A stretch of 59,941 nucleotides of DNA, filler included, from Stramenopiles sp. TOSAG23-6 (Eukaryota), in NCBI GenBank assembly GCA_900128565.1. It is 11 parts of 11 records of this genome, joined end to end, with 100 filler letters (N's around TTAATTAATTAA, not from the genome) between each part and the next. Parts side by side here need not be neighbours in the genome. Positions count along the whole stretch, not along the records: positions 38,296 to 43,633 come from LT636920.1; positions 43,734 to 49,069 come from LT636921.1; 9 more parts are not named here. One strand, written 5' to 3'. A model generated the notes under the pieces. It was given only the letters and a program-made list of their open reading frames with translations. It was not told the origin of the DNA and ran no database searches. Below, one piece after another: positions 2-43,797 of the stretch (its first letter is position 1; each line of letters starts with the position of its first letter). Both the position numbers and the translations under genes were made by a program.

Positions 2-1590
2 ATGCTTTCTGTCCACAAGGATTTAAGGCTGGGTAATACTGGATGGACATCCACAGGAATACAAACCAACATGCATGTAGATTGGCACAAGGATAAAGGT
101 AATGTCAAAGGATCACTTCAGGCAATCCTAGTAATTGGAGAATTCGAAGGTGGTATTCTTTCTGTGAAAAAGAATGATGGTTCTACTGAAGATATGTATG
201 TTTTATCCCACACTGTAGTACTTGAAAAATAATTTATCGAAAAGACAATTGTATCACCAGCTCAGTGGGTGATTTGAATTTTTTTTTGATTTTTTTTTGA
301 TTTCGAATTTTTTTTGTATGCAATTTTGTACCTAATGATTTTTTTTTAAATATTTTTCCAAAATACATTCAAACTGAAAATTTTATGTTGCTCATTGGGA
401 ACTTCGCCAAATTCGATCATATGGTCAGCAAGGTTACATCTGGGCGTCGAACAGTCTTTATTTTTTTCTTAAATGAAAAAATTAAGTTCTTTTCGGACAG
501 GTGCATGACGAGTATTTTGCAATTCTCTTTGCAAGATACTGCACAAATTCTTGAAACTCGAAAAAAACAAAGGGCACAACTACTTCAATTTTCGTACAAG
601 GACATCTTGCATCTTTTGGCTAAAAAGCGAAGTACAATGTCATTGAAACAATCCGAACAAATTCAGAAAGAAGCACAAACTGTATGTTTTATTTTTTTTA
701 ATTTTTAATTTTTTTTGTACGAAATTTTGTACCTAACAATTATTTTTTTGAAATATTTTTCCATCTTACATGAAGTACAAAAAGCAAACCAAATAAAGTG
801 CCAAGTTGGATTATCTTTTGATGAGAACAAAGCCCAGAGAAAATCATTACAAAAAATACTCCTAGCATTGAAAGCTATACAAAAAAGAGTATTTGATTTG
901 GAACCAGTGAAAAATCCTCGCGGCTCTGGTGGCTATATGAAACCACCAAAATGTGCAAGTCAATGTCAAATATCTCAACTTTCAAGGGATTTCAATCCTG
1001 TTTCAACTGAACCACAACTTTTCGATTCAAACAATCAGTGTCCACATCGGCATGATAAAGTTGTGTGTGAAAATTTGGATGGTCGATGCTGCGTAAATGA
1101 AGCCATCAATTATGCGTTGGGTGAAAAAAAATTTAAAAATAATGATGAAAATGTTGGTATTGAAGATATAATTAAAAAACTTCAACCAATGTTCCAACTT
1201 CGAAAGTTCAAGAAAAACAACAAAAAACAAAATACACTAAACGCTATTGTTCAGGCCAAAGGTCAAATTATTATTGCTCGAATAACAGTCAATGTAGCGA
1301 AATCATGTGTACCTGATCATCATTACATTGCATTCAACTCGTGGAATTCGGTATTATTTCTTGGTACTTCATATCCAATTATTTTCGTTGAAGACAATGA
1401 TAAAATCACAGACTTTGCTAAAAAATTGAAAAATGATTTCAATGAAATTGGGCACATAACCCATGCATTTACATTATATGTATCTGGACGCCATTTACAT
1501 CAGACAATGTATAATACCCCAGACGATGCTTTGTACAATAAACAATTGCGCTGGGGTGCAGCACCAACAAAAAGAGCGAAACTGCAATAA
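2..1590 (+). CDS. 5'-truncated spliced gene (exons <2-195, 369-681, 772-1590): 2OG-Fe(II) oxygenase-like domain followed by a possible papain/Josephin-like domain
   Basis: Removing introns 196-368 and 682-771 joins three ORFs in frame. Motifs WHKD (HxD), GEFEGG, FDHMV and GRRTVF (H...R) match 2OG-Fe(II) dioxygenases. Confidence 0.6.
196..368 (+). other. Non-canonical GT-AT intron (family member)
   Basis: gatAT|GTATGT...TTGTACCTAAT...AAATATTTTTCCAAAATACAT|t caa; restores the frame (D-I-Q-T-E-N-F-M). Confidence 0.7.
682..771 (+). other. Non-canonical GT-AT intron (family member)
   Basis: act|GTATGT...GTACGAAATTTTGTACCTAAC...CCATCTTACAT|gaa; removes an in-frame stop. Confidence 0.7.
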
Positions 1591-6458: not shown

Positions 6459-8290
6459 CTATAATGGAGAGAATAGCCCAGTACATGTATTGTCAAAAAC
6501 AATTTTTTTTTGGTGTACAAAACCAATTGTTAGGTAAGAAAATTTTCTATGAAAAAAAAATGTAGGAAAAAAAAAAAAAAAGGAAAACGAACAGTTCAAT
6601 ATTCCATTACAAAATTCATTATAATCAAGTATACCATTTTTGTTTGTATCTAATTCATTTATAAGCGCTGTGAATTCTTCAGGAATTAATTTGACTCCCA
6701 TATCATTCAAAAGCCATAATAATTCTTCCGCCTCAATGCCACCACATAATTAGTGTAACAATATGTCAAATTCAAAATTCGTTAGTAATTACAAAAAGCA
6801 TTTTACATTGAATATTTGAAATGAATGATAGGAACGTGCTCCTATCTTTGTCCAAATCCAAGAAAGCTTGTCTCATACTCGTATATTTTACATGTATTGT
6901 CAAAAAATATTTCAAAACATTTAAATGTAGTTAGACAGTACAAAATTTCGTACGAAAAACCAAAAAAAAAAATAATGAAGAGAAAAAGACAAGGTACATG
7001 AAGTTTACGATTCATTGCTTTTAATGTTTTGAGGGTAGTTTGATTTTTATTTGAAAGTTCCATGATTTGAGGAGAATATTTTTTTATGTCGTTTGCTGGA
7101 TAGCCTCCCATAACAGCAATGAATTCGTTATAGTTGATCAAACCATTTTTATTCGTATCAATTAGTTTCAAAAGTGTATCCTCTTGTTTTTTATCAAGAC
7201 CAAAATCAAATCTAGAAATCGCAGAGAGAAATTCGGAAGTTGTTATATATCCGCTTTTATTCGCATCAAAAGATCGGAAAGCATATCTTGAAAAAACATA
7301 TTTAAAATTCGGAATTTGTTAGGTATGGAATGGAATTTGGTATAAAAAGCCCAAAAAAAAAAATTGCACAAAAAAAAAACATACATCTCGCAGNTGAAAC
7401 CATTTTCTGTACACCCAATTTGAAACTGTACACATGTATAAAGAAAAAATATCTCAAATTTGAAATTCGTAAAAAAAATCTATAAATAATGTACTACAGT
7501 ATGCTATCCCACTGAAATTGGGTTGTGAAAAGTTCAGAATTTTTTTTGTCAGGTACGAAATTTCGTTAGAAAAAATTCGAAATTGAAATTACATCACACC
7601 CCAAGCCCAAAGTTTTTGATCTTCTTTTAATACTAAATCGTTAGAATCAGAAAAGGCTTCCAGCATTAGTTTTGTACCCTTCGAAGAAATTACACGTTTT
7701 ATCCGTCTTTGTTGAGTTTGTAGTTCTCTTTTTTGTTCCCAGAGTCTTCTGGTGGTGAGAATGATGAGGTTCTGTTTTTCAGGAAATTTATATTCCCAAA
7801 GAGATCGATTAGGCATGAGAATTTCCTTTGTCTGGGGTACAACCAAATGATAGCATGATGGATAATTAATACAATTTGGTGCATTCCAATTAGTTTGTGA
7901 AATTAATCGAGCCTTAATAGTTTCAGAAGTATCAGAAGGTTTAAACAAACCAACACAACTACCTTTGGTTGTTTTTACAGTTATATAGTAACTTCGACCT
8001 TCAGCATCTCTACGAGAAAGATTCCTGGATTCATTTAAACGATTCTTATCCGTAGTTATAAGCAATATAGAATTATCTTTTGAAAGATGGAGTTTACCGA
8101 GAGCACAATTATCTAGAATCCGCCTTCCACCAAGGGCCAAAAAATAGCAACTTGGGAATTGAAGAAAGTTTGGACCACCAATAGCCTTTACTTCTTGTCG
8201 TAGTGTCTCCTTGAGCATACCTACAGTACTTGATGAAGCACCCTGTATAGTGTATACATCTCCTTCTTGTGTTGCCAATTTTAGGCGCAT
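6459..8290 (-). CDS. Protein with N-terminal ubiquitin-like domains and multiple EF-hands; 6 introns (7518-7597, 7434-7497, 7283-7384, 6892-6997, 6746-6839, 6485-6592)
   Basis: Splicing gives LRD|AFRSFDANKSGYIT, DTNKNGLINYNEF, DLDKDRS|GGIEAEE and DTNKNGILDYNEF EF-hand loops. The N-terminus has Ub-like repeats (STVGMLKETL...GRRILDN; SDTSETIKARL). Confidence 0.7.
6746..6839 (-). other. GC-AT intron splitting an EF-hand loop
   Basis: agg a|GCACGT...TTACTAAC...CACTAATTAT|gt ggt restores the 12-residue loop DKDRSGGIEAEE. Confidence 0.7.
7283..7384 (-). other. GT-AT intron (family member)
   Basis: cga gAT|GTATGT...ATACCTAAC...TTCAAGATAT|gct ttc gives LRDAFRSFD; the nearby AG would shift the frame. 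Confidence 0.72.
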
Positions 8291-9390: not shown

Positions 9391-10813
9391 TCAGTCTTCT
9401 TTCCCACCTGCACCAAAATGAATACATGTTTTGATTAATTGTCTCATATGCTTTATAGAGGATAACACCTTTACAGAAATATGATCCTCTTCATGAACAA
9501 TTTTTTCTGTGCAATCATTCGTAGGGTTGGGGTTTAATTTCTTTTCAACCACAACGGAATCCAACTCTTTTATTTTCTGTAATTGTTTCACGCAGTGTTT
9601 ATCTAATTGTTGTAATGTTTTGTCCATTTCGTTTTTTCCTTGCCATGAGTCGAAAATATTCCATTCTTTCTGTGCATTAACAAATCTACGCAATAAATCT
9701 AAAATTCTTATTCTTTCTATTTCATTTTCATCAGTCGTCTCATTAGGGCAAATGTTTCTATCTTGAGACAAAGTAGACCATGAAAATTGCAACCGTATAG
9801 AGGATTCTGCTATAGATAGCAATGTACTGTCTACCAAAGAAAGTCCGATAAGCCATAAGATATCGGCGTGTATTGATATTCTTTGTTTTCGATCTTCAGT
9901 CATTACAGTAGGGTTAGGGCTATGATGCACAAGATTCAAAGGGACGTCAATGTTATCAATCAAATAATTACTTGCCTTATGAATATCATTCACCATATTT
10001 AGAAAATTGGGAATGCGAGCAATAAAGGATCTGCAGGTACTATTTGACAGTATTGAATACAATAACACTCTCTCTATACCAATTCCAATATTTGCAACAG
10101 TAAACGCTTTCTTTATATCATTTTCACTGATATTTGCAACAGTAAAAGCTTTCTTTATATCGTTCTTTGTCACTAAATTAATTTTCTGATTCATTTCATC
10201 AAAATTATTGGCATCTGAAACCTGAGTATTCTTCCTCTTTAACAGCTCTTTAAAATACTTGTCAATAAATCCAAATATACAAACAATTTCTCGTAAAATA
10301 CCTAGATCTGATATTTCTTTCGCAAAGTATGTATTGTAAAAAAATTTAAAAAAACAAAAGTTGTCAGGTACAAAATTTTCATCGTAAAAAAAAATGATGA
10401 AAACTCAAAACGTAAAAATCTTAAGTACACAATTTCGTACGAAAAAAAAAAAACATACATGAAACTCGTGAACAATGTGACAGTAATAGCATCCATGATG
10501 TCCAAGAAGACTCGAATCCAGTACAAAATGTATTAGACGTAGAGCTTCTAATAAATTTTGATACTAGCGACAGTAGCGTTCTAAAATTTATCTTTTCAAA
10601 AAAAATGTCATCATATTTTTCACATTTCTCAAAATTGGGTAAAATCAAACCGGTCATGTCGGACTCCACATTCACTGTTTTTGTATTTATTAATTTAAAG
10701 ACTTCTGTAGAGATAGTGCGTACCATACCACCATGGTGGTACTTTCTGAAAGACTCTCCTGATGCGACTGAGGAAAGAAAGTGTACCTTACTGATGTTTG
10801 ATTCTAAAGCTTG
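9391..10813 (-). CDS. 5'-truncated hypothetical protein (exons 10813-10459 and 10328-9391)
   Basis: GT-AT intron 10329-10458 (tcAT|GTATGT...ACAATACAT|ac) joins ORFs 10421-10726 and 9391-10194 in frame. An upstream family intron ends ...CACAATACTT at 10814. Confidence 0.65.
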
Positions 10814-14242: not shown

Positions 14243-14602
14243 ATTTGGGTTTAAAAGAGGCAAAAGCTATGGTTGAGTCTGCACCAGTTGTTGTCAAAAA
14301 GTCACTTACAAAAGATGAAGCTGAGCAATTGAAAAAAGAGCTTGAAGAATTGGGAGGGGAAATAATTCTGGAGTAAAATGTAAATCCACTTTGCGGAAAT
14401 ATGTAAATCTTTTGAAGGTGATTTTTTGCAGATGTAATAGCTTTGTTTTTAGGTAAAATCTTATAACATTAACATCGTATATAATGTAATTAAACGAAAA
14501 TAAGAATTGTTTCTTTTTTCATCTCATAGTTATAACTTTTTCCATTTTATTTACCAATATTTGCTACAAATTTTATATACGAGGGTTAGGGTTTAGGCTA
14601 CT

Positions 14603-16302: not shown

Positions 16303-16467
16303 ATGTATTTTGAAAAAATATTTCAAAAAAAAATCTAAAAAAAATTGTTAGGTACAAAATTTCGTNNNNNNNNNNNNNNNNNNNNNNNNNNNNNNNNNNN
16401 NNNNNNNNNTTAATTAATTAANNNNNNNNNNNNNNNNNNNNNNNNNNNNNNNNNNNNNNNNNNNNCA

Positions 16468-17546
16468 AGCATCCAGGACGCGGCCACAGCCCGCCGCAAA
16501 CTCCGTGGAGCGCTGGTCCATGGCCGCACCATCGGCGTAGAATACGGCCAGGAAAACTGCCCGCTTCGTGACCTCAAAGAGGTTTTCGCAGAGTTTGACA
16601 GTGGGGCGCCGGCCACCGCTGTGGGCGCGGCGGGGGACGCCAAGTCCGGCCCTGCACTCGGAGCACAACCGTCCATACCTGACGCGTTTGACTACAAACC
16701 TTCGGCTGTGGCTACCCGCGCGGTGTTGCTCCGTGGGTGCCCGCCCGATGCGCAGTACCGCGACATTTGCAATTTGGCGAACATGCACGGACGGATTCAG
16801 CGCGCGGCACTCGACGCGCAGGGGCGCCGCGTGGCGATCGTGTTTCTGGACACCGAGTCTNNNNNNNNNNNNNNNNNNNNNNNNNNNNNNNNNNNNNNNN
16901 NNNNNNNNNNNNNNNNNNNNNNNNNNNNNNNNNNNNNNNNNNNNNNNNNNNNNNNNNNNNNNNNNNNNNNTTTTTTTTTCAAGCAGAAGACGGCATACGA
17001 GATCTCATCGATTCAGGGGCTTCGCGCAACATTTTTGTGGGCAATGTCGGATCTGTGTCTCGCCAGGAAATGCATCAAGCTTTTGGCCCGTTCGGAAACT
17101 ACGAGAGTATTATCACGCTCGAGTCGCGCGGAATTGCATTTGTCAACATGGTTGATATCGAGGCTGCCACGCGCGCCCGGGATGCCCTCCAAGGCAGTGA
17201 GATCAATGGCAGGCGCGTCACTGTCAACTATGCCAAAGAAAAACTGGGTCCGAATGCGGTAGGCCCATCGGCAAGCCTGAATTCCAGGATCGGCTCCCGA
17301 GGCGGGGGGCAGCGGGGCGGTGGGCAGCGGTTCGGGGGGGGTGGCTATTCCAAACCAACCGGCGGGTATGGCGCTCCTACAGGCTATGGTGGTGGCGCTT
17401 CTGCAGGTTATGGGGGTGCTTCTACTGGATATGGTGGTACTTCCACTGGCTACGGGGGTGGAGGAAACGCAACGTATGGGGGAAATACGTACACTCAGCC
17501 GTCGACTGGCAGTACAGGGTACGACCCAGCAGCACCAGTGCAGTAG
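16468..17546 (+). CDS. Multi-RRM RNA-binding protein with a Gly/Tyr-rich tail (5'-truncated, gapped)
   Basis: RRM tail HGRTIGVEYG, RRM AVLLRGCP...AIVF, RRM NIFVGNV...RGIAFVNM...INGRRVTVNYAK, then GGYG repeats. Confidence 0.75.
16980..17003 (+). other. Illumina P7 adapter contamination
   Basis: Exact CAAGCAGAAGACGGCATACGAGAT next to an N gap. Confidence 0.97.
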
Positions 17547-18928
17547 TGTGCGCGTCAAGAACGGGCGTTTTTTGCGTTAGTAGTTCGTACGTGGTGTGTT
17601 CGTACTGATGAATGACCAGAGAGGCTAACGCAGACACACAAGTAACGGCGCAAATGTTCGCATACCTGACCGCCTATAAGCTGTTTTAAAATGCAGCGCC
17701 CAACAACTAAAGATGGAGAGACACCCTGCCTGGACAGCGCACGCGTGCACGAGACACTACAGCTGTGTATGCTGTCACTAAAATGCATGTTCGTGAGGGA
17801 AAGACTTCCACTTTTCTAGGAACATTCCCTCGGAAGACAAGGCCGAAACAATGAACTAATTACGAATGCGCATATCTAGTACGTGCCTCCAGTTGCAAGC
17901 AACTCTTCAAATATGTAACAGAGCTACCCGATTCGAACCGAGTCAAACATATCCCGCATACGTCTTTGATCATCAGCTACGCCCCCCCTGCAGTCTATAG
18001 GTGCCAATTGAAACGTCCGATGTTCTTGCCGAACGAAAACATTCGCAGACTCCAGACGTCCAAAAAGCTATTTTGGTGATCGCGAAAGGGCTCTTGAAGA
18101 TCTCTGGTTTTCTGAAAAAGAGCATGAAATGTTTAAAAACATGATGGAGAAGATGAAAAGACAGCGGTCCGCACTGTACGGAGAACACGGCAAGACCAAG
18201 GCCCGTGAAAACCTCATTGCGATTTTTGAAGAACACAAGGTCGAGCTCACTCCAAGTACGTTTCAGCTGATAGATGCGAAGTCTATTGGCGTTTTTGGTA
18301 GTTACGTGCGCCCACAACTTAAGCACAACTGCTTTGCCCCCTGTGCCACGCAGAACTTGCAGAGGATCTCCGCGAGTGGAGGGTAACATTTGAGTCACGA
18401 GATGACGCACTTCATGGTGATAATTAGCAACGTCTACGTAAACACAGTTTGTGCAAGGAGTAAAAAGCAAATTCACTGGACTGATCCCACCGTCGCGGCC
18501 TAGACCTCATACATAACCAACACAGTGGTCGGTGCATCGATTTGGCCCTAATTGAAATGTATCTTATTCTGAAAACGAGTGGACGTTGTCAAATAAAGAG
18601 CGAATTGCGTATTATTCATTGCAAACAATGTACTACACACGTGTTGACTTCTACTCGAAGAGCATTGTCTTAGTTGTTAGATGGGCCTCTAGATCCGATT
18701 ATGAATGACTCCCAAGCGTTGAGCTGTTGATGGGATTGACTCGGAGCGAAAAAATATTTCAGGCAGAAAACTGTGAATCTGAACGCTGAAGCTGGCCGGG
18801 CGTGTGTGGGGCTGTTTAAGGTGCGTCCGGGGGCGCTGAATCTGCGTGCTTAGCGCGTATATCGCATAATCTCGTTGATAGGATCCGACTGACAGCTGTG
18901 CGTTTCGCGCGACCATAGGTTTATCTCC

Positions 18929-21841
18929 ATGTCGGACCCGGGAAGTGCCACAGCCGCCACGGCGGGGGGGCCCAATGGTGAGATTGCAGATTGCGGCTTG
19001 AACGCGGCATCCTTGACAGCCATGCTGACAAAATCGCGCCAATGCGCAGATAAAGAAGCGCAAAGTGTGACGAAATCCTCCGCATCTGGCTCTGATCCTG
19101 GAGGGTCCGGTGGAAAGGCTGCCAACAAGTCCAGCCCCCCTCTATCCGATGCCAAAGCGGACGCCAGCGGTGCCGACGCCATTAAAACAGAGAATGGCGG
19201 CAATGCCGAGGCTTCTGAGTCTAATGAAGCCGCTGCTGGCAATGGTGTCAGTGCTGGTAATGAGACAGGTGCCAAGACAAATGGCGCTAAGGCAGCGAAA
19301 TCTGGTGATTCGGTCAAGGCGGCTGATGCCAAGGCCGATGTCGAGGGCAAGGCCGATATCAAAGCTACAGCGGAAGGCCTGGGTACCCAACCTAAGGATC
19401 TCAAGACCAAACCTGGACAAGAGACCGCCTCCGCGACTGAGAGTGTAGCAGACAAGACTGATTCAAAGACTGAAAATGTCACGGATTCAAAGGCGAAAAA
19501 TGTCAAAAACGCAACGGTCACGGGTCCTAAGACCAAGGAAAAGTCCGACAAATCAGATGCAGTGGTGAAAAAAACCAAACGCGAAAAAGGCCGCACGGCA
19601 AGCAACCCGCTCCTTGCTGTGGTCATGCCGCCTGGTGAGGTCTCTCAAGCGGAGAAAAAACCACGTCGTAAGAAGAAGACCAAGTCTATGGGCAGTCGTT
19701 TGGCTGGAATTATGGACAAAATGAAAATTGGCGCTGCCAGCAATGCTCCTGTTCCGCGTCCGGGGCGGAGGAAGTTGAGAAAAAAAGGCAGTTCTGGAAA
19801 ACTCAAGCTCCCTGTTGGCCTTATGGGTTTGATTGGTGGTGGGGCTAAAGATGACACACCTGGCAAGGCGCCTGGCAATGCGGCTGATGCTGTGAAAAAG
19901 AGAAAGAAAAAACCTCTATTCAAACGGACTGGAACAGCGCCATCCATGCTCCGAATGCTGCAAAGCGCGCCTGATATGCCATCCAAGGCTGGGAACGCCG
20001 CGGGTGGAAAGTTCAAGAAAGGTCCTCCTGGGTTCAGCGCCACTGTTGGAGGACGTATTCCAGGCGTTGCCACATTAGGCAGTGCTAAAGCAGGCTCTCA
20101 ATCAAGCACAATGCCAATGCGCGCTACATCAGGAGTTTTGCCATTGCGCAAGGGTCGTGGTGTTCGCAGTGGTGTTCGCAAAGCCCCGAAGGGTTTGGCA
20201 GGTCTCATAGGCAAAGGACGAGGCGGCATCAAAGGTAAAGTCCCCTTGGGTTTGGCATCTCTCATTGGAGGCGAAAGGCGGCCTGGTGTGAAAAAGACCA
20301 GGACATCAGGTGACCAGAACGGCTCTGAACAAACACCTCAAACGACTGCTGATGGCAAAACAGACACGACCGAACAGCCTAAAGAGCAACCTCTGAAAAA
20401 CACGGAAGAAGCGATGGAGAAACAGGATCTTGTTCATCTTACTCTCTCAAGACCAAAGGGCAAAACTAGAAGATCAAAGTCAAAACCGCGAAGGGTACGT
20501 GTTTGCGCGCCAAAAATCATGAGCCGATTTTTTCTTTTCTTTTTCGTGTGGGCTCATTTATCGGTTGTTTTTTGTGCTGTTTTTGATTTTTTTTTGGTGG
20601 ATTTTGGGACGTTTGTGTTTTGCAATTGCAGGCCAGGCTTGATGTGGTCCGCCGCGCGAAGCATGCACTAGCGCGCTGTTCTTCCATGTTTTTCCATGTT
20701 CTTCCACCCGCATTTGTCTGATCCGCATTTGTCTAACCCATTCTCTTGTCATCCACACGCAATACACACGCAACAGCGTAAACGAACAAAACGACGGTTC
20801 AAGAGCTCTCCCGAAAACGACCTGATTCAATTTGTGAAACCGATTCTTGATGAGCAGCATGCGCAGTGGCTCTACCGTCTGGCAGATGCAATCGATGGAG
20901 TCGGCAGCGAATCTGCCGCGGATTCCGATGCAGTTCAGGACGCGAAACGTCCTGTCGCCATGGGCAGTTCTAAAGCTGCAGATGTGTCTCTTGTGACGCC
21001 TCTCACTGGGCAATCAGATGAACAATCAGATGATGCAGAGAAACGGAAATCTGATGAGAAGGCTGATGTTTCAAATGATAAAAGGGATGCTAAATCAGCT
21101 GATGATGGTGCGAACCCCAACGATGATACCAATGGTATGAGAAACAAAGAGATTGAGACCAAGACAGACAAGACACCTAAAACGGCACAGACTGATGAAA
21201 CACAGACTGATTCAAGTGACAAAGCTCCTGCTGACAAGGTCGAATCTGCTAACAAGGCACCTACCAAGGCACCAGAGAAGCCTGTGGGGACAGATTCTCC
21301 ATCAAAACAAGAGAAAACAAGCGAGAACAGGTCCATTCGCATTCGCAAAAACGCCGCATTCCATGCAAAATCCATTTCAAAGCCCACAGTCCCAGTGGCA
21401 CGATTTCAATCCCGAAGATCCCGCAAATTCCGAAAACCAACACCTCCACAACCCTATCCTCCACAACCCCATTCTCCATTGCCCCATCCTGTGCCCCGTC
21501 CTGTGCCCCATCCTGCGCGGCGTAAACCCCCAAGACCCCCAAGACCAACAAAACCCAAACCCTTTTCAATTTCAAAACATACCCGCAAACCCCGAAAAAT
21601 TAAACCACACCCTTCCCAACATCCTGCCAAACCCGCTGCCAAATCTGCTGTCGAGCCTGCTACCCACACCCCTGGAGCGGCGGCACGACCAGCTTCATGG
21701 CTTGAGGCGTTTTGTGCAGCGCCAATCGCACCCCCCAAACCCCCACGTCCTTCTAAACCCCCCTTACCACCCCGGATATCATCTGTATCATCTCGCAGAC
21801 GTTCATCATCCAGGCGGCCATCCTCAGGATCAAAACCCAAA
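18929..21841 (+). CDS. Large low-complexity (Ala/Lys/Pro-rich) protein with a CPI-like motif; canonical GT-AG intron 20495-20776; 3'-truncated
   Basis: agg|GTACGT...GTCTAAC...CAACAG|cgt joins the 580-aa and 397-aa ORFs in frame. LVHLTLSRPK motif and PxxP-rich tail. Confidence 0.6.
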
Positions 21842-21941: not shown

Positions 21942-22573
21942 AGAGACAGGGTGAAATGGTTAAAGTCACAGATGTGCCACCTAGTTGGAAGCTGGCATCT
22001 GTAGCAACCACTAAACAGCCAAAAGTTGAAATAAAACATGAATCTTCAATTATTGCAAAACATGATGTCCCGATATTGAATAAGGCTCAACAAGTAGTTA
22101 AAAACAAATCCAACTCAAGTGCAAATGACCACCAAAAAGTTAAAGACGAATTCAACTCAAGTGCAAATGACCAACAAGTAGTTAAGAACGAATTGAATTC
22201 AGGTGATGAACGTGCTTGTAATATCGATAATGAAATATTATTACCACGTGTAAAAACTATCATGCGAGAAATGTTGAAAACCCTAATTTTAGCTGCAGAT
22301 CTTTCATCGACCACAGGACGAATACTCAGGAAAACTTTACAGAAGGAATATGAAAGTTCTAGTGAATTGTCTAGGTACGTTTCCATCATGATTTTTTCAT
22401 ACTCGATTTTTTTTTCGTAAATTTATATACACCTACTAATAATTTTTCTTTCATTTATTTTTGCACCATATATGATCCAAATCATCAACTGGGAGAATCA
22501 TTCAGTGAAAATGTTCATCAGAAATCAAATTAGGGAACTAAGTGCTGAAGTGTTTAAAAAGAGTGATGCTTAA
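21942..22573 (+). CDS. 5'-truncated protein ending in a DEK-C-like domain; GT-AT intron 22375-22473
   Basis: LKTLILAADLSSTTGRILRKTLQKEY...KMFIRNQI. Intron ag|GTACGT...CCTACTAAT...CACCATATAT|g. Confidence 0.6.
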
Positions 22574-29254: not shown

Positions 29255-30748
29255 TCAATCAATATCATCATTGTGAATACATAACACTTCATTACCTATT
29301 TGAGCAGTATGTATTGAAAAACTTTCAAGAAGAATCTTTTTTTTACTAAATACACAGGAAAAGAATAAAATGATTGATATACCAATAGCTGATAGTAAAA
29401 CACCATTTGCCATCAATATTCCTTCTTGTTTATTCGGTGCATTTTCCATCAAAATGTTACAGATCCATAAAAAGAAAACACCAGCAAATTGTGCAACACA
29501 ATTTAGTACACCAGCAACTACAGCTTCATCAGCTTGAAGGGCAAGTGAAGTAGCTAATTCAAATCCACTGGACAAAACTGCTGCAATAAAGAATCCAGTA
29601 AAAAAAAGTGACGAATACAAAAGTATAACACAATACCCATCACACATAAAATGCGTTCCCTCAAATTTTTGAGCATATACAACAGAATATCCAAAGAAAA
29701 CTGTACCAAGTAAGGTACCTACTAGTAGAAAACCCATTATTCTTAGTTGATTGAAATTGAATATATCGAATAATTTCCCGCTGCTATATGATCCAAATAC
29801 CCATATTGTGAAAAAAGTATTTTTTTTTGTAAAATTTGTTTGGTAAAAAAAATTGACAAAAAAAATAAATTCGAAATTGAAAAAAAAAATAAAACATACC
29901 CCAAACATAATAAAACCAATGCCGAGCCATCCTATACGAAGATTTGAAGTATATGCAGGTAGAAATTGTGCAAGAAATGTTGCAATTCCATAAAATACAC
30001 CTACATTTAATCCATATACAATTGAAAAACTAATAAGGCTACATGAAGAAGTAAAGACTTGAAGTGATTCAATATATCCTGCTTTATGTAAATTCCTCAA
30101 TGAACCATTTGATTCCATAACTATTGGTGGGGTTGGTGGAGAATTTGCCATTAAAAAAAAAATAAGCAATAATGCAAGTAGAGCGATAAGGCATTGAATA
30201 CTTAGATAAATGCTCAACTCCTGAGTAGAGTATATATCAAATACAACTCCAGAGCCTAGACCAAAAGCAGTTCCAAGATTATTAGCAAAAACACCAATTG
30301 ATGTGGCTAAACAACGTTCGTGTTCACCAAACCAAGAATGAGAAAGAAAAGGAGGTATCGCTAGTGTGAATGTTTGTGCAAGTGCTGATATAAAGGTACC
30401 AATGTATACCATCTTATACGTGGAAGAGTAATACCAACGAATGAAAGATCCTGAAAAATTAAAAAGTGCCCCAATCAGTAGTCCTTTTCTCATCCCGACT
30501 CTGTTGATGAACCACAAAGCTGGAATTGATGCTGGAATATATGTGTACATGAAAACCATTGAAAGATTATTAACATCTGCATATGAAGTTTTCCAAATTG
30601 TTGAAACTTCAGTAACCAGCGGAGAAAACGTTATCCATTGCCAACCATTAGATAAGGTCAAAAGAGCAAAGCTAAAGAGAACGAACCACCGCTTGGAGTA
30701 AAGTACTGGATTAGCGGTCTCCTGACCAAGAAGCGAATCGTGATTCAT
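29255..30748 (-). CDS. MFS transporter, FLVCR/SLC49-like, with an in-frame 99-nt intron (29801-29899)
   Basis: YSKRWFVL, QWITFSP and WFGEHERCLATSIG motifs. The Phe-rich insert VCFIFFF...FFTIW is a family intron. Confidence 0.85.
   Translation of the reverse strand: MNHDSLLGQETANPVLYSKRWFVLFSFALLTLSNGWQWITFSPLVTEVSTIWKTSYADVNNLSMVFMYTYIPASIPALWFINRVGMRKGLLIGALFNFSGSFIRWYYSSTYKMVYIGTFISALAQTFTLAIPPFLSHSWFGEHERCLATSIGVFANNLGTAFGLGSGVVFDIYSTQELSIYLSIQCLIALLALLLIFFLMANSPPTPPIVMESNGSLRNLHKAGYIESLQVFTSSCSLISFSIVYGLNVGVFYGIATFLAQFLPAYTSNLRIGWLGIGFIMFGVCFIFFFNFEFIFFVNFFYQTNFTKKNTFFTIWVFGSYSSGKLFDIFNFNQLRIMGFLLVGTLLGTVFFGYSVVYAQKFEGTHFMCDGYCVILLYSSLFFTGFFIAAVLSSGFELATSLALQADEAVVAGVLNCVAQFAGVFFLWICNILMENAPNKQEGILMANGVLLSAIGISIILFFSCVFSKKKILLESFSIHTAQIGNEVLCIHNDDID
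29801..29899 (-). other. GT-GG intron (family member), in frame and stop-free
   Basis: ttt gGG|GTATGT...TACCAAAC...TTCACAATATGG|gta ttt; removal restores the TM helix IMFG|VFGSYSSG. Confidence 0.7.
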
Positions 30749-31118
30749 TCTTCAAAGTATTCTAGATAATGTCAATATGTGACATGCCACTGTTGGAAAA
30801 TCTATTATTTTTGTTTCGAATTTTTGTATGTCCTCAAATAGGTAATTATTAGATTTGACACACTTGACTTGACCGATTTGGGATGACCAACAAAAAAAAA
30901 TTGTCAAATACAAAATTTGAAATTTGGACGATTTGAATTTAGTTCACTTCGAGTGTGATATCATTTATCTTTTTTTCACATTCACTTATATTTGATTTTG
31001 TATGTAAATAATAAAGAAATAAAATACAAATATTTTTTGATTTTGTTTTTAATAGTAGTACTGTATATAGACAATCTTGCAAATGCAATAAAAAGTCATA
31101 TATATATAAGGGTTAGGG

Positions 31119-32539
31119 TTACAAACAGTTTCCAACTTTTACACATAATTCTGCCATTCTATTTGAATATCCCCATTCATTATCATACCAAATATATACT
31201 TTTACTTGAGTACCATTGACAACCATTGTAGATGCGGCATCAACAATACCTGAACGAGGATCATTTGTATAATCCGTAGATACTAAAGGTTTGACCTCGA
31301 TGTATTGTGAAAAAATATTTCAAAAAATTCTAAAAATTTTGTTAGGTACAAAATTTCGTATGAAAAAATATTGATGAAAAAATCTGATGGACAACGTACA
31401 CACCCAAAATGCCTTTTTTAGACCCGGATGATGCAGCATTTGTGAGAACTTGATTTACTTCACATGTTGTTGTTTCTCTCTGCATTTCAAATACACAATC
31501 TGTGAGTGAAGCGTTTGCCACAGGTACGCGAACGGCATCTGTATTTGGAAAAAATATTTCGAATTCAAAATTTGTTAGGTTTGGAATTTTCATGTAAAAT
31601 TTTTGTTTTTTTCATGTAATTTTTTTTTAAATTCATTATGAAAACATACATCCATTTAGTTTACCTGCAAGTTCTGGTATGACGTCACCGATAGCTTTGG
31701 CTGAACCAGTGCTTGTAGGAAACATAGACGCTGGAACAACACCTCGTGATCTACGAATATATATTATAAAAAATATTTCAAAATATTTCAAAAATTTGTT
31801 AGGTACAAAAAATTCTATACAAAAAAAAATAGATAAAAAATTATAATGAAAAACAAACATCTTTTTGTGCTGGCCAGTGTGCATCAAGAACCGTTTGTGT
31901 GTTTGTGACATTATGAATTGTAGTAATCATGCCATGAGAAATTCCGATGGTATCATGAAGAACTTGAATGACTGGAGCAATACAATTTGTAGTACAAGAT
32001 GCTGCGGTTATTATATGATCTGTTTTTGGATTATACTTACAATCATTAACTCCCATAACAACATTCAACACGCCTTCCTTTAATGGGGCAGCTACGATTA
32101 CTTTTTTTACTCCATGTTGAAATAGTGGAGCTAACTTTGATTTTGTTTTAAATTTTCCAGAACACTCAAGGACAATGTCACAATTGCTCCAGTCGACTGA
32201 CTCAAGTGAAGTTTCAGTAGATAGACTTACTTCATTTCCATTAACAGTAAACGAGTTTTCTGAAAACTGTATACCACTTTCATAATCAGTCGTCGCATAT
32301 ATATCATTCTTACCATTTGTATTAGGAATCCAACGACCGTGAATACTATCCCACTCTAATAAATATGCAGAAGTCTCTGGAGTTGATTTAGGTTCATTGA
32401 CGTGTATTATTGTTAATTCATTCGAAGTTGTTTTGTCAGAAAGAGCCCGAAATACTAAACGGCCAATACGACCAAAACCATTGATTCCTACTTTGATAGG
32501 CGATGACTTTGAATTTGAAAAAGTTCCAATTTCTGGCAT
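31119..32539 (-). CDS. GAPDH: Glyceraldehyde-3-phosphate dehydrogenase, ArsJ-associated/gap3-like type; introns 31759-31858 (GT-AT), 31539-31649 (GT-AG), 31300-31399 (GT-AT)
   Basis: [74 protein letters not shown] and WYDNEWGY motifs. Confidence 0.92.
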
Positions 32540-32910: not shown

Positions 32911-33852
32911 TTGGTTCGGTCATATTCTAAAAGTTTTTTTTGTTGTGCTTCTGCAGCTTCAAGGGACATGGCTAATTTATCTGCTTGTGCACGTTGTCGA
33001 TCAGCTCTTGTAGAGTAAATGCCTCGTCCTGTTCCATTTTTACGACTTCTTTGAACGTCCAATGCATTAAGAGGAGCTCCACAAAATTGGCATATTGTAA
33101 AAAAAAATATTTTTAGAAAAAAAAATATTAGGTTATATTATACAATTATAACAGGTTATATAATATAATATAATATAATATGTATATTACAAATGACAAA
33201 TGACAAATGAAAAATGACAAAAAAATAAATCATAGAAATGTATAGGATACATTTGCATAATACAATTGACATTTGAATTGGATGATAAAAACCTACATGG
33301 ACCGAGTCCTTCAAGCTCACAAATAATTTTACCACATTCTAGACAATTTGTTAATACGCCTACTCCAGAACCATGCGTATAGTAATCTTTTCTATTAGAA
33401 TCTTTACTGTTATATTGAGGAGTTTTCTTTACAACTTTCCATTTTTGTCTTGATAAAGTATTTGTTGCTTTCACTTGGTCTTGAGGCATTTGACCTTCTT
33501 TAGGTACATTATTTATTTTAGGCTTTCCTCGCTTCGTTTTATTTCGTGTCTTTCGTGTAATGGGTACAGCTGTGCGTGATTGACGAACAGGTTTATGTCT
33601 CTCATCTTCTTGTAAACGTCGTGCTATATCAGCGTCACTCTCTTGAGGAGTTATACTAATACGTCTTTTTATTAGCTCTTTCGCAAATTTTCGAGCTGCA
33701 TCTTCACTACCAAAGTATCCCATAGAAAAATTAACCAATGTGGGCTCATCTTCAATACTAATGAGGTAATCTGCTATTTGATCTGTGTCATTGAATCCTA
33801 ACTCTCGTCGGAGGCTTTTCTTTGCCCATTTTTTCAAAGCAGCAGCATTCAT
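32911..33852 (-). CDS. TRIP4: TRIP4/ASC-1-like protein, N-terminal part (zf-C2HC5); intron 33092-33296, next donor at 32910
   Basis: NCLECGKIICELEGLGPC|QFCG and KKLLEYDRT motifs; PWI-like N-terminus. Confidence 0.8.
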
Positions 33853-38418: not shown

Positions 38419-39788
38419 GTTCAAAGATTCTTTCAGGAAGAAAGCAGGAAAATTCCAGAGAATTTTATTATCTGTGTTAAGGGCATACTCGGTGTACGAT
38501 CCTTCCCTGGGCTACGTTTGTTTTCTGATGAATTTCAAATTTATGTTTTTTTTTTCGTAGGAAATTCTGTACCTAAGATTTTTTTTTCTAGAATATTTTT
38601 TCACAAAATATTGCCAAGGTATGAATTGGTTATGTGGAATAATTGTGCTTACCCATAATGAAAAAATGAAAAAAAATATAGAAACCAAAAGAAAAGATGA
38701 TTGTACTGAGTATACTTTGAACTCTTTAAAAATTAGTGTTAATACTAATGATATGAAAGAAAATGTAACTTTCAATTTCAATTTTTTTTTTTTTTTTTTT
38801 TTTGTAAAATCTATAGTAATTACTAACAAAAAAAACATTTTTTTTTGAAATATTTTTTTTTTTTTGTATATTTCATTGTAATACCTAACAAAAAAAAACA
38901 TTTTTTTTTGAAATATTTTTGACATCATCTCATTCAAGTATTGGTGTGTTTCCTTCAAACCCAAATGTTGAAGTACTAACAGGTGGTGATTTTTCTCAGA
39001 AATTAGGTTTTTCAATAGATTCGAAACTTCCGATGGAACACGAAAAAACAAATGAAAATGAAGCAGAAGCAGAAGCAGCAAACCCTAACCCTAATCAGCC
39101 TCTAGAAAATGATACAATGATGATTTCAGATAATGATAGCATTGTTCCAATTGGTCTTTGCCTTACTAGAGAAGAATGGTGTACAGCACTTGAAGTATTT
39201 ACACTCGTACTTTTTTATCATTTCAATTTTTTATCTAAATATTTTTTCATACGAAATTTTGTACCTAACAAATTTTTTAGAATTTTTTTGAAATATGTTT
39301 TCACTTGATATACATCTGCCATAATGGAAAGACCTTCGTTTGGATTAAGAGGTATGTATGTTCGTGGAATGCCAAAACTTGAAGATCTCTTTATTACATT
39401 AGATATCTTAACTTTACGTCACTTACCCAATCTTCATAAACATATAAAAAAAGCGAGGTGTAGCGCTGGGGTTCCTGTTCAACCCTCGTGCAGACTTTAT
39501 GCCGTTCAATGGTTTCTTTCTTTATTTTGTCGTGATTTCGATCTTAGTCTTGGCTTAAAAGTATGGGATGCTGTGATGTATCGTGGAATTTCCACACTTT
39601 TACGTGTTGCCGTGGCTGTACTTAAAATGGCAGAGCCTGAGTTGATGAAAATGAATTTCGAAGGCATTTTACACCATTTACGAACGGATTTACCAAAGAC
39701 AATTCGTGTAGAACAACTCTGGTCTGAAACATTAAAATTAGACATTACAGAGTCAGTATTGAATAACCTTTTGAATGAAGTTAGATGA
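38419..39788 (+). CDS. Rab-GAP TBC-domain protein (5'-truncated); introns 38516-38611, 38765-38930, 39207-39311
   Basis: VLRAYSVYDPSLGY|CQGMNWL, YAVQWFLSLF and LKVWD motifs. Confidence 0.85.
38516..38611 (+). other. GT-AT intron splitting the TBC GYCQG motif
   Basis: ggc tac|GTTTGT...GTACCTAAG...CACAAAATAT|tgc caa ggt; both neighbouring AGs give frameshifts. Confidence 0.8.
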
Positions 39789-40234: not shown

Positions 40235-40474
40235 TGTGAATAAAAATGCTTTTCAATACACAGACTAACTATACCTGCTGCTACACTGCATTTGTTGTGT
40301 GTGTACGCAGTTCGAGTTTTGACCGACGCGCGACGACACGTGTCTTTCTGACCGTTCTTGTCTGGAGCCAGTGGAGTGGAGCCAGCCACTCTCCAAGTAT
40401 AGCCTCCAAGTAAGTAAGTATAGCTATCTCTAATATAATTAATATGTATAGTCAAAGTTAACTTATATTTTACA

Positions 40475-42139
40475 ATGAGTAACACGCTTGCATTAAAAAA
40501 AACTAAACGTGAACAGGAACTTTTTCAAAAGGTTTTTAGTGGGATAGGTCCTGCCGTTGTGATCACTAGCTATTTATGCCTGAAAGACAGACTCTCAGGA
40601 AGAGCTACATCAAATGATAAACACCGTCCTTGGATGGTCGATGCTGAGTGGGGTAAAGTGACATGCTCAAAAGTAGCTAGCGCTGGTGACTTGAAATTTT
40701 TAAAATGGCTAAGAAGAAGAAAACCGCCTTGTCCATGGGATGAAGAAACGTGTTGTCAAGCAGCTAAAAATGGTCACTTAGACGTACTACAATGGGTAAT
40801 AAGTCAAAATCCACCTTGTCCTTGGGATGAATATACGTGTCAAAATGCAGCTAAAAATGGTCACTTAGACGTACTACAATGGGTAAGAAGTCAAAATCCA
40901 CCTTGTCCTTGGGATGAAGAAACGTGTAGTGATGCAGCTAAANATGGCCACTTAGAAGTATTGAAATGGTTGAGAAGTCAAAATCCACCTTGTCCTTGGG
41001 ATGATGATACGTGTGAAAATGCAGCTGAAGGTGGTCACTTAAAANTATTAAAATGGTTGAGAAGTCAAAAACCACCTTGTCCTTGGGATATTGGGACGTG
41101 TTGTTATGCAGCTAAAAATGGTCACTTAGACTTACTACAATGGGTAAGAAGTCAAAATCCACCTTGTCCATGGGATGAATTGACGTGTAGTTATGCAGCT
41201 AAAGGTGGTCACTTAAAAGTATTGAAATGGTTGAGAAGTCAAAACCNACCTTGTCCATGGGATGAAAATACATGTCGAGATTCAGCTGAAGGTGGTCAAT
41301 TAGAAATATTAAAATGGTTACGAAGTCAAAATCCACCTTGTCCGTGGAATGTTTTTACGTGTCGTAATGCAGCTGCAAATGGTCACTTAAAAGTATTACA
41401 ATGGGTAAGAAGTCAAAACCCACCTTGTCCGTGGAGTGAATCTACATGTCGTAGTGCAGCTAAAGGTGGCCACTTAAAAGTATTGAAATGGTTAAGAAGT
41501 CAAAATCCACCTTGTCCATGGAATGAAAGTACTTGTGGTTATGCAGCTGATCAATTGGAAGTATTAAAATGGTTAAGAAGTCAAAACCCACCTTGTCCTT
41601 GGGATGCAGAAACGTGTGCTGTTGCAGCTGACGGTGGCCACTTAGAAGTATTGAAATGGATAAGAAGTCAAAACCCACCTTGTTATTGGAATGTATTTAC
41701 GTGTATGAATGCAGCTAAAAATGGTCACTTAAAAGTATTACAATGGGTAAGAAGTCAAAATCCACCTTGTCCATGGAATGTTTTGACGTGTAGTTATGCA
41801 GCTGAATATGGTCACTTAAAAGTATTGAAATGGTTAAGAAGTCAAAACCCACCTTGTCCTTGGGATGTAAACACATGTAATAATGCAGTTGCTTTTGGTC
41901 ATTTAAAAGTATTGAAATGGATAAGAAGTCAAAATCCACCTTGTCCTTGGGATGAAATCATTTGTCAAAATGCAGCTGAAAATCGTCGATGGGAAATATT
42001 AAAATGGTTAAGAAGTCAAGATCCACCTTGTCCGTGGGATAGAAGGACTTACGAAATTGTAGTTAATGCTGCAAATGCTGCAGCTGCTAAAGGCAACTTA
42101 GAAATGTTACAATGGTTAANAAGTCAAAATGCACCTTAA
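40475..42139 (+). CDS. Ankyrin-like tandem repeat protein (~29-aa CPWD..TC..AA..GHL.VL.WLRSQNPP repeats)
   Basis: About 16 near-identical repeats, also visible at DNA level. Confidence 0.88.
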   Translation: MSNTLALKKTKREQELFQKVFSGIGPAVVITSYLCLKDRLSGRATSNDKHRPWMVDAEWGKVTCSKVASAGDLKFLKWLRRRKPPCPWDEETCCQAAKNGHLDVLQWVISQNPPCPWDEYTCQNAAKNGHLDVLQWVRSQNPPCPWDEETCSDAAKXGHLEVLKWLRSQNPPCPWDDDTCENAAEGGHLKXLKWLRSQKPPCPWDIGTCCYAAKNGHLDLLQWVRSQNPPCPWDELTCSYAAKGGHLKVLKWLRSQNXPCPWDENTCRDSAEGGQLEILKWLRSQNPPCPWNVFTCRNAAANGHLKVLQWVRSQNPPCPWSESTCRSAAKGGHLKVLKWLRSQNPPCPWNESTCGYAADQLEVLKWLRSQNPPCPWDAETCAVAADGGHLEVLKWIRSQNPPCYWNVFTCMNAAKNGHLKVLQWVRSQNPPCPWNVLTCSYAAEYGHLKVLKWLRSQNPPCPWDVNTCNNAVAFGHLKVLKWIRSQNPPCPWDEIICQNAAENRRWEILKWLRSQDPPCPWDRRTYEIVVNAANAAAAKGNLEMLQWLXSQNAP

Positions 42140-42407
42140 TAAAATCATCAATAGTAATTTCAAATTTCATTTATTGTTATTTTTACAATTACAATTTATG
42201 ACTCTTTTATAAATTAAAAAATATCTAAAATAATAATATTTATTTCAATCCTTTTTGATTATACATTTTGTCAATATTTTCTCAAAAAATATAATAATAT
42301 TTATTTCAATTCCTTTTTGTTTACACATTTTTTTTTTACCTACATTTTTTTTTCGTACGAAATTTTGTACCTAATAAATTCAAAAAAAAATTAAATTTTT
42401 CTTTTGT

Positions 42408-43575
42408 TTACACATTTTCCTCTTCATCATCACTAAATTCAATATGAATCATAGGACGTTTCCAATATCTCAAACCACTAAAATTTTCATCGATTGAACT
42501 TTGATGACCTAATCTACTACCAGAATGAACAATGGTCACATTTTCGTCAAAAGGTGGAAACATTTGATCGACAAAGTATTGTGAAAAAATATATTTTTTT
42601 AAAAATTCGTTAGGTACAAAATTTTCTACCAAAAAAAAAAAATTAAAAATTAAATTTTGAAAACGTACATATGCGATAGAGAAGAATACGAATCCTGAAT
42701 AGTATGATTATAATGACGAATAAGACCATCGCTATTAATAACGAAAATTTTTCCTTGTGGAACTCCCACTGCATTATATGCCATTACATGTATTATAAAA
42801 AAATATTTTTTTTGTAAAATATTTTGTTAGGTACGAATTTTCCTACAAAAAAAAAAAAAAAAAAAAAATTAATTTAATTTTGAAAACATACATCTGTATG
42901 TCGATTTCCAAAACCAGCATAAAACGGGTTTTCATTTTTTGTAAACAAATTTCGGATACTACGAAGAGCTCCAATTTTAAACTCTTCAGGACGTCTAACA
43001 ATGACTTCTCGTTTGAATGCTTCAAATAAGCGACTTGGTGATGTGATTACCGGACCATCAGGAAGATATCTTGTGAAAAAATATATTTTTTTTTTTTTTT
43101 TTTTTTTTTGTAAAAAAAAAAAATTCGTTAGGTACAAAATTTCGTACTAAAAAAAAATTCAAAAATAATCATGAAAACGTACATGTTGGTCACCTTGACT
43201 TATATTACTTAGATAATTCTTTGTCGCACTAATTTGTCCGATTGCTCTACTTGTTAGGTACAAAAGATGATAGCCATTGTTACGTACTCCTTGAAATAGA
43301 GCAGCAACACCAGAATGAGTCCAATCTCTACCAAGCATATATAAAACATGACCTAGTGCATCAGATTTTGTAATGGTTCCATGAATTGTGTAAAAATATT
43401 TAAAAAAAAAAAAAAATCTTAAGTACAAAATTTCGTATGAAAAAAAAATTATAGATAAAAAATTCATTATGAAAACGTACATCAACATCGCTGACGACAA
43501 TTTTCGAGTGAGATGACCAACAATAGATTGTTGCTTCGACTGTTTGTGTCCCTTGCATTGATGACGTCACACTAA
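42408..43575 (-). CDS. LPIN: Lipin / phosphatidate phosphatase (LNS2 domain), 5'-truncated; introns 43381-43480, 43066-43182, 42788-42891, 42574-42668
   Basis: Spliced product contains [55 protein letters not shown] and VDQMFP. Confidence 0.92.
43381..43480 (-). other. GT-AT intron inside the lipin catalytic DxDxT motif
   Basis: gtt gAT|GTACGT...TACGAAATTTTGTACTTAAG...CACAATTCAT|gga acc att aca. Confidence 0.85.
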
Positions 43576-43797
43576 ATGTATTTTGGAAAAATATTTGAAA
43601 AAAAAAAACTAAAATTTGTTAGGTACAAAATTTNNNNNNNNNNNNNNNNNNNNNNNNNNNNNNNNNNNNNNNNNNNNTTAATTAATTAANNNNNNNNNNN
43701 NNNNNNNNNNNNNNNNNNNNNNNNNNNNNNNNNTAGGTACAAAATTTCGTACGAAAAAAAAAATTTAGACAAAAAATTGAAAAAAAATAAAACATAC

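Follow-up and report, generated by a model that had tools for sequence, protein, structure and literature searches.

Inserts ending in AT in a marine stramenopile genome belong to one introner-like family and are probably removed by U2-type splicing

Results

Homology places the junctions of the inserts

The DNA analysed here is a stretch of 59,941 bases (the window) from assembly GCA_900128565.1 of Stramenopiles sp. TOSAG23-6. It consists of 34 short pieces with N runs and TTAATTAATTAA linkers between them, and everything below concerns these 60 kb of genome. Genes for lipin, GAPDH, a major facilitator superfamily (MFS) transporter and a RabGAP-TBC protein, among others, are interrupted by inserts that an earlier note on this sequence had listed as 22 introns, most of them without the 3′ AG (table 1). 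All 22 are present where that note placed them, and our recount of their 3′ ends returned the same figures as its hand count: 17 AT and one each of AG, GG, TT, CT and AA. AT makes up 12% of the dinucleotides within these introns, which gives P = 3e-12 for 17 or more AT ends among 22. The description of the intervals as introns starting with GT held for 21 and failed for 6746-6839, which starts with GC. All 22 copies lie in the sense orientation relative to the host gene.

Removal of the four lipin inserts (43381-43480, 43066-43182, 42788-42891 and 42574-42668, all on the minus strand) leaves one open frame with a complete LNS2 domain, in which the catalytic DVDGTITKSD is exactly restored. The four proposed junctions, DVD/GTITKSD, QH/LPDGP, NRHTD/VMAY and H-I-VDQMFP (slash, junction), are gap-free against 22 lipin homologues, and the residue at the last of them is I or L in all 21 homologues that cover the site. 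Despite four inserts in the catalytic domain, the lipin exons hold no other stop or frameshift. At 43381-43480 the next AG lies inside the exon, as had been pointed out before, 28 nt past the junction, while at 43066-43182 a CAAG 4 nt before the junction is passed over. The contig ends inside a fifth copy of the intron.

Removing the three GAPDH inserts gives QKD/IRRSRG, KLNG-Y-AVRVP and GILG-V-EVKP, all gap-free against 30 homologues. IRRSRG aligns to L-R-R-A-R in 29 of the 30 and to IRRSRG in the closest homologue; the GAPDH exons, too, are without any other stop or frameshift. Together with one junction in the MFS transporter, this makes eight that homologue alignments fix to the codon (lipin four, GAPDH three, MFS one), with 3′ ends AT in five cases and TT, GG and AG in one each. 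The terminal AG expected of U2-type introns is therefore present in one of the 22 inserts and in one of the eight homology-fixed junctions. On the sequence, homology requires codon-exact junctions at these sites, and splicing at AT is what we infer from them. The non-AG-ending inserts are a real feature.

For the whole set, we scored an interval as passing when its removal left an open stretch of 30 codons or more to either side in a single phase. This was so for 18 of the 22 listed intervals, for five when the 3′ end was shifted by 1 nt and for three when it was shifted by 2 nt; random 100-nt deletions passed in 432 of 3000 cases.

Only letters shared between exon and intron allow a cut to be moved. 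At 43381-43480 this leaves GT..AT, TG..CA, AT..TC and TA..TG, none of them canonical, and at 43066-43182 it leaves GT..AT, TG..TA and AT..AT. Cutting two bases to the left (/ATGTAYGT ... AATAC/AT) would turn the inserts into AT-AC introns, and a copy matching the consensus (AT/GTATGT...ATAC AT/) does permit this with identical mRNA, for example at 42788-42891. An exon ending in AT together with AC at −4/−3, however, occurs in only four of the 22 (196, 6892, 10329 and 42788). Elsewhere the shift yields AT..TC at 43381-43480 and AT..AT at 43066-43182, and at 42574-42668 it would place F at the residue conserved as I or L. We regard AT-AC introns as extremely unlikely: among the alternative cuts compared, GT..AT is the only reading that fits throughout.

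Splice signals and the 3′ site

The claim of a U2-type donor is upheld by the consensus GTAYGT, with G at +1 in 22, T at +2 in 21 (the other being the GC), A at +3 in 18, G at +5 in 17 and T at +6 in 20 of the 22 introns. The claimed U2-type branch point likewise finds support: 18 of the 21 introns scanned carry a CTRAY motif 31-62 nt before the end, and the unscanned one, 6746-6839, has TACTAAC.

U12-type introns have the donor consensus RTATCCTT and a branch site, TCCTTAAC, about 10-26 nt from the 3′ end. Removal by the minor (U12-type) spliceosome or a derivative of it could draw on a donor, GTATGTTTT, that matches the U12 consensus GTATCCTTT at seven of nine positions, and on CCTAAC, which loosely resembles the U12 branch site. 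Set against this, CC at +5/+6 is found in none of the 22 donors (C at +5 in two, at +6 in none), in line with the absence of the U12 donor reported earlier; the CCTAAC motif stands 31-62 nt from the end; and GTAYGT with CTAAC is the textbook pair of U2 or yeast-type introns. U12-type machinery is known to tolerate both GT-AT and GT-GG ends (PMC1557818), and here there are 17 AT ends and one GG, but we consider such a removal unlikely.

Frame and homology, rather than any motif, defined the junction register, and in that register the final 21 bases are conserved as AAATATTTTTT, then C-A-C-A-A, then T-A-Y-A-T. A run of T occupies −16 to −11 (T in at least 17 of 22 introns). At the end itself A is found at −4 in 19, Y at −3 in 22, A at −2 in 19 and T at −1 in 19, with T at −5 in only 14, so that positions −2 and −1 are as conserved as the best positions of the 3′ block. 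The 3′ site is A-Y-A-T, in which only the final G of YAG is replaced, and in the sole AG copy (31539-31649) the AG sits exactly at the YAT position. The idea that the 3′ site is chosen independently of AG accordingly survives in one half, in that only non-AG ends give conserved proteins; the site is not sequence-free, YAT standing in the place of YAG.

The distance from CTAAC to the end varies between 31 and 62 nt through changes in the length of A and T runs, whereas that from the T-run and CACAA is almost constant, which points to a local cue for the 3′ site; a ruler measured from the branch point was rejected on the same variation. By eye, 'first YAT after the T-run' fits 13 of 22 introns and fails at the homology-fixed 31759-31858 and 42788-42891, and it was set aside. 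So was pairing of the 5′ junction with the 3′ end: there is no covariation, GTACGT copies retain ATACAT-type ends, and the GG/GG case described below is a direct repeat and not complementary. Eight of the 22 introns, folded with 10-nt flanks, had no unusual RNA structure (z −0.86 to +0.88 against shuffles), and stable pairing that joins the ends, as in hairpin-type introns, was seen in none of the eight. A variant ending in ACTT recurs three times, at 42574 and in partial copies near 10814 and 38418.

Within the last 45 nt, AG is absent from 15 of the 22 introns and present but unused in seven; read from the sequence, splicing at six of these seven internal AGs would put the exons out of frame, and at the seventh a stop is encountered. 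This bears on whether the real mRNAs use nearby cryptic GT-AG pairs, with proteins that tolerate small insertions or deletions. In-frame pairs do exist by chance at both GAPDH AT introns, where they are used in the deposited protein model P0122, and at 7518-7597 a canonical TTTCAG lies 6 nt downstream in frame. Such cuts, however, would cost GAPDH its IRRSRG and disrupt G-I-L-G-x-E, and use of the next AG in lipin would strip the catalytic DxDGT motif of GTITKSD. We judge cryptic GT-AG splicing very unlikely.

P0122 is the EukProt protein GSMAST32.ASY1.ANO1.1080.1, with which the GAPDH of the window is identical across all shared segments. It is the same as our inferred protein at the AG intron 31539-31649. 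At the AT intron 31759-31858 it forces a GT-AG pair and IRRSRG is deleted; at the AT intron 31300-31399 it adds one residue, loses the conserved E and disrupts GILG-x-E. P0122 also lacks two stretches of exon 1 (18 and 10 residues). At the introns, the deposited model is wrong at exactly the two that end in AT, and annotation pipelines that insist on GT-AG probably yield faulty models for many of this organism's genes.

The inserts are copies of one repeat family

The earlier note was right that the inserts form a recurring class; it missed that they all belong to a single repeat family. An end-to-end alignment gives a mean pairwise identity of 63% (maximum 84%), with blocks of conservation at the donor, branch site and 3′ block. 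The family consensus is (AT)/GTAYGTTTTC ... TTTTTTCRTACGAAATTTTGTACCTAAC ... GAAATATTTTTTCACAATACAT/, with a shorter form (AT)/GTAYGTTTT ... CGTACGAAATTTTGTACCTAAC ... AAATATTTTTTCACAATACAT/. About 45 kb of non-redundant AT-rich contigs hold 22 full and seven partial copies, and thus many related copies in unrelated genes, whose exons are long apart from the inserts. The partial copies are located at contig ends, where assemblers break on repeats. In metagenome and metatranscriptome data from seawater, very many contig pieces (many hundreds in the metagenome) pile up on the element. The inserts look like an intron-creating, 'introner-like' element with lineage-specific intron gain.

The branch-region word TTTGTACCTAAC occurs 39 times in the window with up to two mismatches, against 7.35 expected, and none of 100 shuffles reached 39, although this count includes a contig present three times. 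Assembly redundancy takes two forms, an identical 5,336-base contig at 43734-49069, 49170-54505 and 54606-59941, and a 923-base contig present as reverse complements at 10990-11912 and 15443-16365, either side of 11914-15441; because of these repeats, motif counts are inflated. They also include false hits, since TTTGTACCTAAC is found at 43253-43264 (minus strand) inside a lipin exon, where it encodes LLYLTS and is a chance coding match. A 20-base word of the element had no match in a public metagenome contig collection; in public genome contigs it had one, in a Bacteroidales metagenome-assembled genome (L001:6187-6206), which we take for chance or a stray eukaryotic fragment.

Just beyond the lipin stop codon (window 42300-42420, plus strand) lies a partial family copy antisense to lipin. 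The direct repeat TTTTGTTTACACATTTT flanks it on both sides, at a spacing of about 85 nt, and the GTAYGT expected at its start is missing.

The family has short inverted termini, ATGTAT and ATACAT (about 6 nt). The 5′ exon ends in AT in 12 of 22 cases (P = 9e-8) and in T in 17, and its last two bases equal those of the insert in 10 (nine AT/AT and one GG/GG); seven inserts end in AT where the exon does not. This could reflect either a 2-nt target duplication or a preference for insertion after AT with an element-encoded AT end, and the data do not decide between the two.

GAPDH gives some indication of timing. Its best family match is NF033735, 'ArsJ-associated GAPDH', and most of its protein hits are bacterial, at 50-56% identity. 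The presence of introns in a bacterial-type gene suggests that they were gained recently, and the closest homologue, P0123, is uninterrupted at two of the junction sites, consistent with lineage-specific gain. A bacterial-type GAPDH with three introns in a eukaryotic contig suggests a horizontally acquired gene whose introns were gained later. A search for loci related to P0123 gave only 50-56% identical loci and not P0123's own contig, and so no orthologous GAPDH locus. We also considered the neighbouring MFS gene as ArsJ and rejected this, its NCBIfam match being only generic MFS.

A highly repeated family at which contigs break could also consist of plain transposon insertions that are never removed, in loci that are broken copies. 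Restoring a frame on paper is possible for any insertion, conceptual excision is no evidence of splicing, and the MFS gene is without clear constraint. Against that stand the four inserts in the lipin catalytic domain and the three in GAPDH, whose exons are nevertheless otherwise intact. Purifying selection is apparent on GAPDH, where eight of ten exon differences from a metagenome variant are synonymous (P = 2.7e-4), and every copy is sense-oriented and carries donor, branch site and T-run. Unremoved insertions in broken genes thus have only a slim chance of being the explanation.

The inserts in public DNA data

Public runs with the GAPDH contig comprise small runs of one coded organism, seawater metagenomes and metatranscriptomes; runs with a small share of it are uninformative on habitat. 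Four of them (three RNA, one DNA) were compared with the GAPDH contig. The earlier note had named an assembly error for AG as one way in which the terminal AT could mislead. Seawater metagenome contigs from another study (X4) cover 31300 and 31759 unchanged there, and carry the two GAPDH AT introns at the same contig depth as the exons, a measure that cannot rank the parts of a gene. For that reason the far lower depth of the element in the two polyA runs than in the DNA run is given no weight. AT ends kept and introns at exon depth in X4 argue against both assembly error and DNA elimination, and the AT ends are real DNA.

Excision at the DNA level, with AT as the short direct repeat that bounds each element in the manner of ciliate internal eliminated sequences, would account for the excess of AT at exon ends, for the ten exon and insert ends that agree in their last two bases, including the single GG/GG, and for the inverted termini. 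Bulk metagenome DNA nevertheless keeps two introns at exon depth, with no insert-free joint among those listed; the joint table for this contig is crowded by cross-matches between repeat copies, with 57 joints beyond those listed. Splice-like internal signals would moreover be purposeless, and the seven inserts ending in AT after an exon that does not are left without the repeat. We hold DNA excision to be highly improbable. No strain lacking an insert was seen among the public-run contigs compared with the GAPDH contig.

Other genes and contigs of the window

Most pieces have a G+C content of 26-40% and a few of 46-65%. The contigs at 16466-21841 (51-65% G+C) stand apart from the rest, contain no family copies and could belong to a different organism in the sample. 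Going by the EukProt protein name alone, the host is probably a MAST-3-type marine stramenopile.

In the RabGAP-TBC gene, the junction GY/CQGM (38516-38611) falls in what we take to be the TBC Y-x-Q motif; with E values as high as 10 allowed, Pfam still gave no usable match to these short exons of the gene. Internal duplication was observed in two introns, of the branch site and 3′ block in 38765-38930 (plus strand) and of the branch region in 10329-10458 (minus strand). A long open frame at 40439-42139 (plus strand) encodes about 15 ankyrin-like repeats in tandem, each of 33 residues and of the form GHL..L.WLRSQNPPCPWDE.TC..AA. The sole Rfam match in the window at the gathering threshold is a tRNA gene at 3581-3652 (minus strand), and at that threshold Rfam found no small nuclear RNA in the window.

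Table 1. Genes, introns and partial intron copies in the window (slash, junction).
Feature	Position	Strand	Basis or remark
Lipin (LNS2 / phosphatidate phosphatase) coding region, C-terminal part	42408..43566	-	Spliced frame, homologue search, alignment to 22 homologues
Lipin intron GT..AT, splits DVD/GTITKSD	43381..43480	-	Homologue alignment
Lipin intron GT..AT, splits QH/LPDGP	43066..43182	-	Homologue alignment
Lipin intron GT..AT, splits NRHTD/VMAY	42788..42891	-	Homologue alignment; AT..AC cut gives same mRNA
Lipin intron GT..TT, splits H-I-VDQMFP	42574..42668	-	Spliced frame, homologue alignment
3′ half of further intron copy at contig end	43576..43633	-	Ends ...AATACAT just before lipin frame
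GAPDH gene, ArsJ-associated (bacterial) type, four exons	31100..32539	-	
GAPDH intron GT..AT, splits QKD/IRRSRG	31759..31858	-	Gap-free against 30 homologues
GAPDH intron GT..AG, junction KLNG-Y-AVRVP	31539..31649	-	Same family; sole AG end among 22; gap-free against 30 homologues
GAPDH intron GT..AT, splits GILG-V-EVKPL	31300..31399	-	E after junction conserved in 30/30 homologues
MFS transporter gene, two exons	29258..30751	-	
MFS intron GT..GG, splits IMFG/VFGSY	29801..29899	-	Gap-free against 24 homologues; 5′ exon also ends GG
RabGAP-TBC gene, partial at 5′ end	38419..39785	+	Last exon matches PF00566 positions 116-216
3′ part of intron copy at contig start	38296..38418	+	Ends ...CACAATACTT just before TBC frame
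TBC intron GT..AT, splits GY/CQGM	38516..38611	+	Frame; no equivalent shifted cut
TBC intron GT..CT, 3′ half duplicated	38765..38930	+	Frame only; junction in poorly conserved stretch
TBC intron GT..AT	39207..39311	+	106 and 158 open codons
Intron GT..AT	196..368	+	64 and 112 open codons
Intron GT..AT	682..771	+	127 and 272 open codons
EF-hand gene intron GT..AT, weakly supported	6485..6592	-	52 and 7 open codons
EF-hand gene intron GC..AT, TACTAAC branch motif	6746..6839	-	Removal restores loop DKDRSGGIEAEEL
EF-hand gene intron GT..AT	6892..6997	-	107 and 39 open codons
EF-hand gene intron GT..AT, weakly supported	7283..7384	-	Upstream frame cut short by N at 7394
Short intron GT..AT, weakly supported	7434..7497	-	No clear branch motif
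Intron GT..AA as listed, ambiguous	7518..7597	-	Canonical TTTCAG 6 nt further (end 7512) also in frame
Intron GT..AT	10329..10458	-	134 and 299 open codons
Intron GT..AT	22375..22473	+	143 and 32 open codons
Intron GT..AT, 205 nt	33092..33296	-	260 and 78 open codons
Partial intron copy at contig start	5511..5565	+	Ends ...TACAT
Partial intron copy at contig end	10814..10889	-	Ends ...CACAATACTT
Partial intron copy at contig start	10990..11052	+	Ends ...AATACAT; contig recurs reversed at 15443-16365
5′ part of intron copy at contig start	43734..43797	-	AT/GTATGT...; contig present three times
3′ part of intron copy at contig end	48988..49069	-	Ends ...ACAATACAT; contig present three times

Discussion

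The best explanation of these data, and one that we consider probable, is a transposon-like intron family removed by U2-type machinery at YAU instead of YAG. The inserts would be spliceosomal introns of one high-copy, introner-like family in a marine, probably MAST-3-type, stramenopile, each copy supplying its own U2-type signals in the form of a GTAYGT donor, a CTAAC branch site, a T-run and a conserved 3′ block. The major spliceosome would remove them at the RNA level, with a second cut that follows A-Y-A-U, immediately past the T-run and CACAA block, where Y-A-G would be expected. We favour a 3′ site picked via this local block, the last base being read less strictly than usual or in an altered way.

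Several observations count against this explanation. Four of the 22 intervals contribute little to it: 7518-7597 is ambiguous, while 6485-6592, 7283-7384 and 7434-7497 are weakly supported, with short or N-limited flanks. All copies are related, so their uniformity, the shared AT ends included, may partly reflect shared ancestry rather than a rule that holds across the genome. The MFS gene, with six synonymous and ten non-synonymous differences (P = 0.14), gives no clear sign of purifying selection. No listed contig from the three RNA runs and the DNA run bridges an exon-exon junction on the GAPDH contig; in one non-polyA RNA run, a contig of 151 nt extends 5 nt into intron 29801-29899 and represents unspliced RNA or DNA. 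Finally, a protein collection contained no transcript-derived protein of 55-398 aa near-identical to GAPDH across a junction.

The terminal AG is among the most conserved signals of eukaryotic gene expression, and to our knowledge only very few natural systems have dropped it across a genome (Fritillaria, Amoebophrya and the euglenozoans). If the explanation is true, a canonical donor and branch site with only the last base changed from G to U would be an unusually clean natural experiment on the second catalytic step and on the reading by U2AF, and an altered splicing rule would be linked to an introner burst. It would also explain mis-predicted genes and bear on functional inference from such single-cell genomes. 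A broader proposition, that an entire lineage of abundant, heterotrophic marine stramenopiles of MAST-3 type has changed its 3′ splice-site rule from YAG to YAU, coupled to an intron-making repeat spread to thousands of copies, we see as evenly poised. Were such a lineage-wide rule true, published gene models that force GT-AG would be systematically wrong at most introns.

Introner-derived introns and non-canonical introns are both already known; new here is an AT-ending, introner-like family with canonical donor and branch site. We found no report in the literature of AT-ending introns in stramenopiles, although supplements could hold intron statistics. In four papers on MAST genomes (PMC5778133, PMC12614181, PMC8163842 and bioRxiv 10.64898/2026.04.17.719054), look-ups of terms in the text, supplements aside, met no mention of non-canonical introns.

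The family shares with the introner elements of Micromonas, Aureococcus, dinoflagellates and others its many copies of about 100 nt in unrelated genes, their sense orientation, their own splice signals and the long exons. The described introner families have canonical ends, whereas the 3′ end here is AT. Families with unfamiliar splice sites were set aside in a 2025 introner survey unless supported by RNA (PMC12130899). Aureococcus elements, as PMC7789003 describes them, have constant terminal inverted repeats, direct repeats and canonical motifs; by comparison, the family here has inverted termini of about 6 nt and a 2-nt match of exon and insert in ten of 22 cases. The same paper describes repeated introns in Amoebophrya with non-GT/AG borders and short direct repeats overlapping those borders, in elements whose inverted repeats of 8-20 nt form end-joining hairpins and whose terminal dinucleotides are inconsistent. 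Amoebophrya is thus likewise a marine protist with repeated introns bearing non-canonical borders, but the family here has uniform GT..AT ends and unusual structure in none of the eight introns folded.

The tunicate Fritillaria borealis has non-canonical introns at genome scale and a U2-type spliceosome in which divergent U2AF paralogues read odd 3′ ends (PMC13326754). A departure from GT/AG at genome scale with a U2-type spliceosome would be what the two cases have in common. Both ends are non-canonical and diverse in Fritillaria, a chordate; the stramenopile introns described here keep a strict GTAYGT donor and deviate only in the final base of the acceptor.

GT-AT introns are also found in mammals. 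For human and mouse, PMC1557818 counts seven GT-AT and eight GT-GG U12-type introns, GT-AT being reported as competent for U12-type splicing, and one conserved U2-type GT-AT intron in mammals, in DGCR2. These share the terminal dinucleotides of the present introns and indicate that GT..AT can be spliced. There they amount to a handful per genome, while here they dominate (17 of 22 in the window) and have a U2-type donor and a distant branch site. Ciliate internal eliminated sequences differ in another respect, since the inserts described here are present in bulk metagenome DNA.

Yeast-type U2 introns have a GTATGT donor and a TACTAAC branch site, and the first YAG after the branch site is used. 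The family described here resembles them in its strong, near-invariant donor and branch consensus and in a branch site tens of nucleotides from the 3′ site. It departs from them at the 3′ end, where internal AGs are passed over in seven of 22 introns and the cut would follow YAT.

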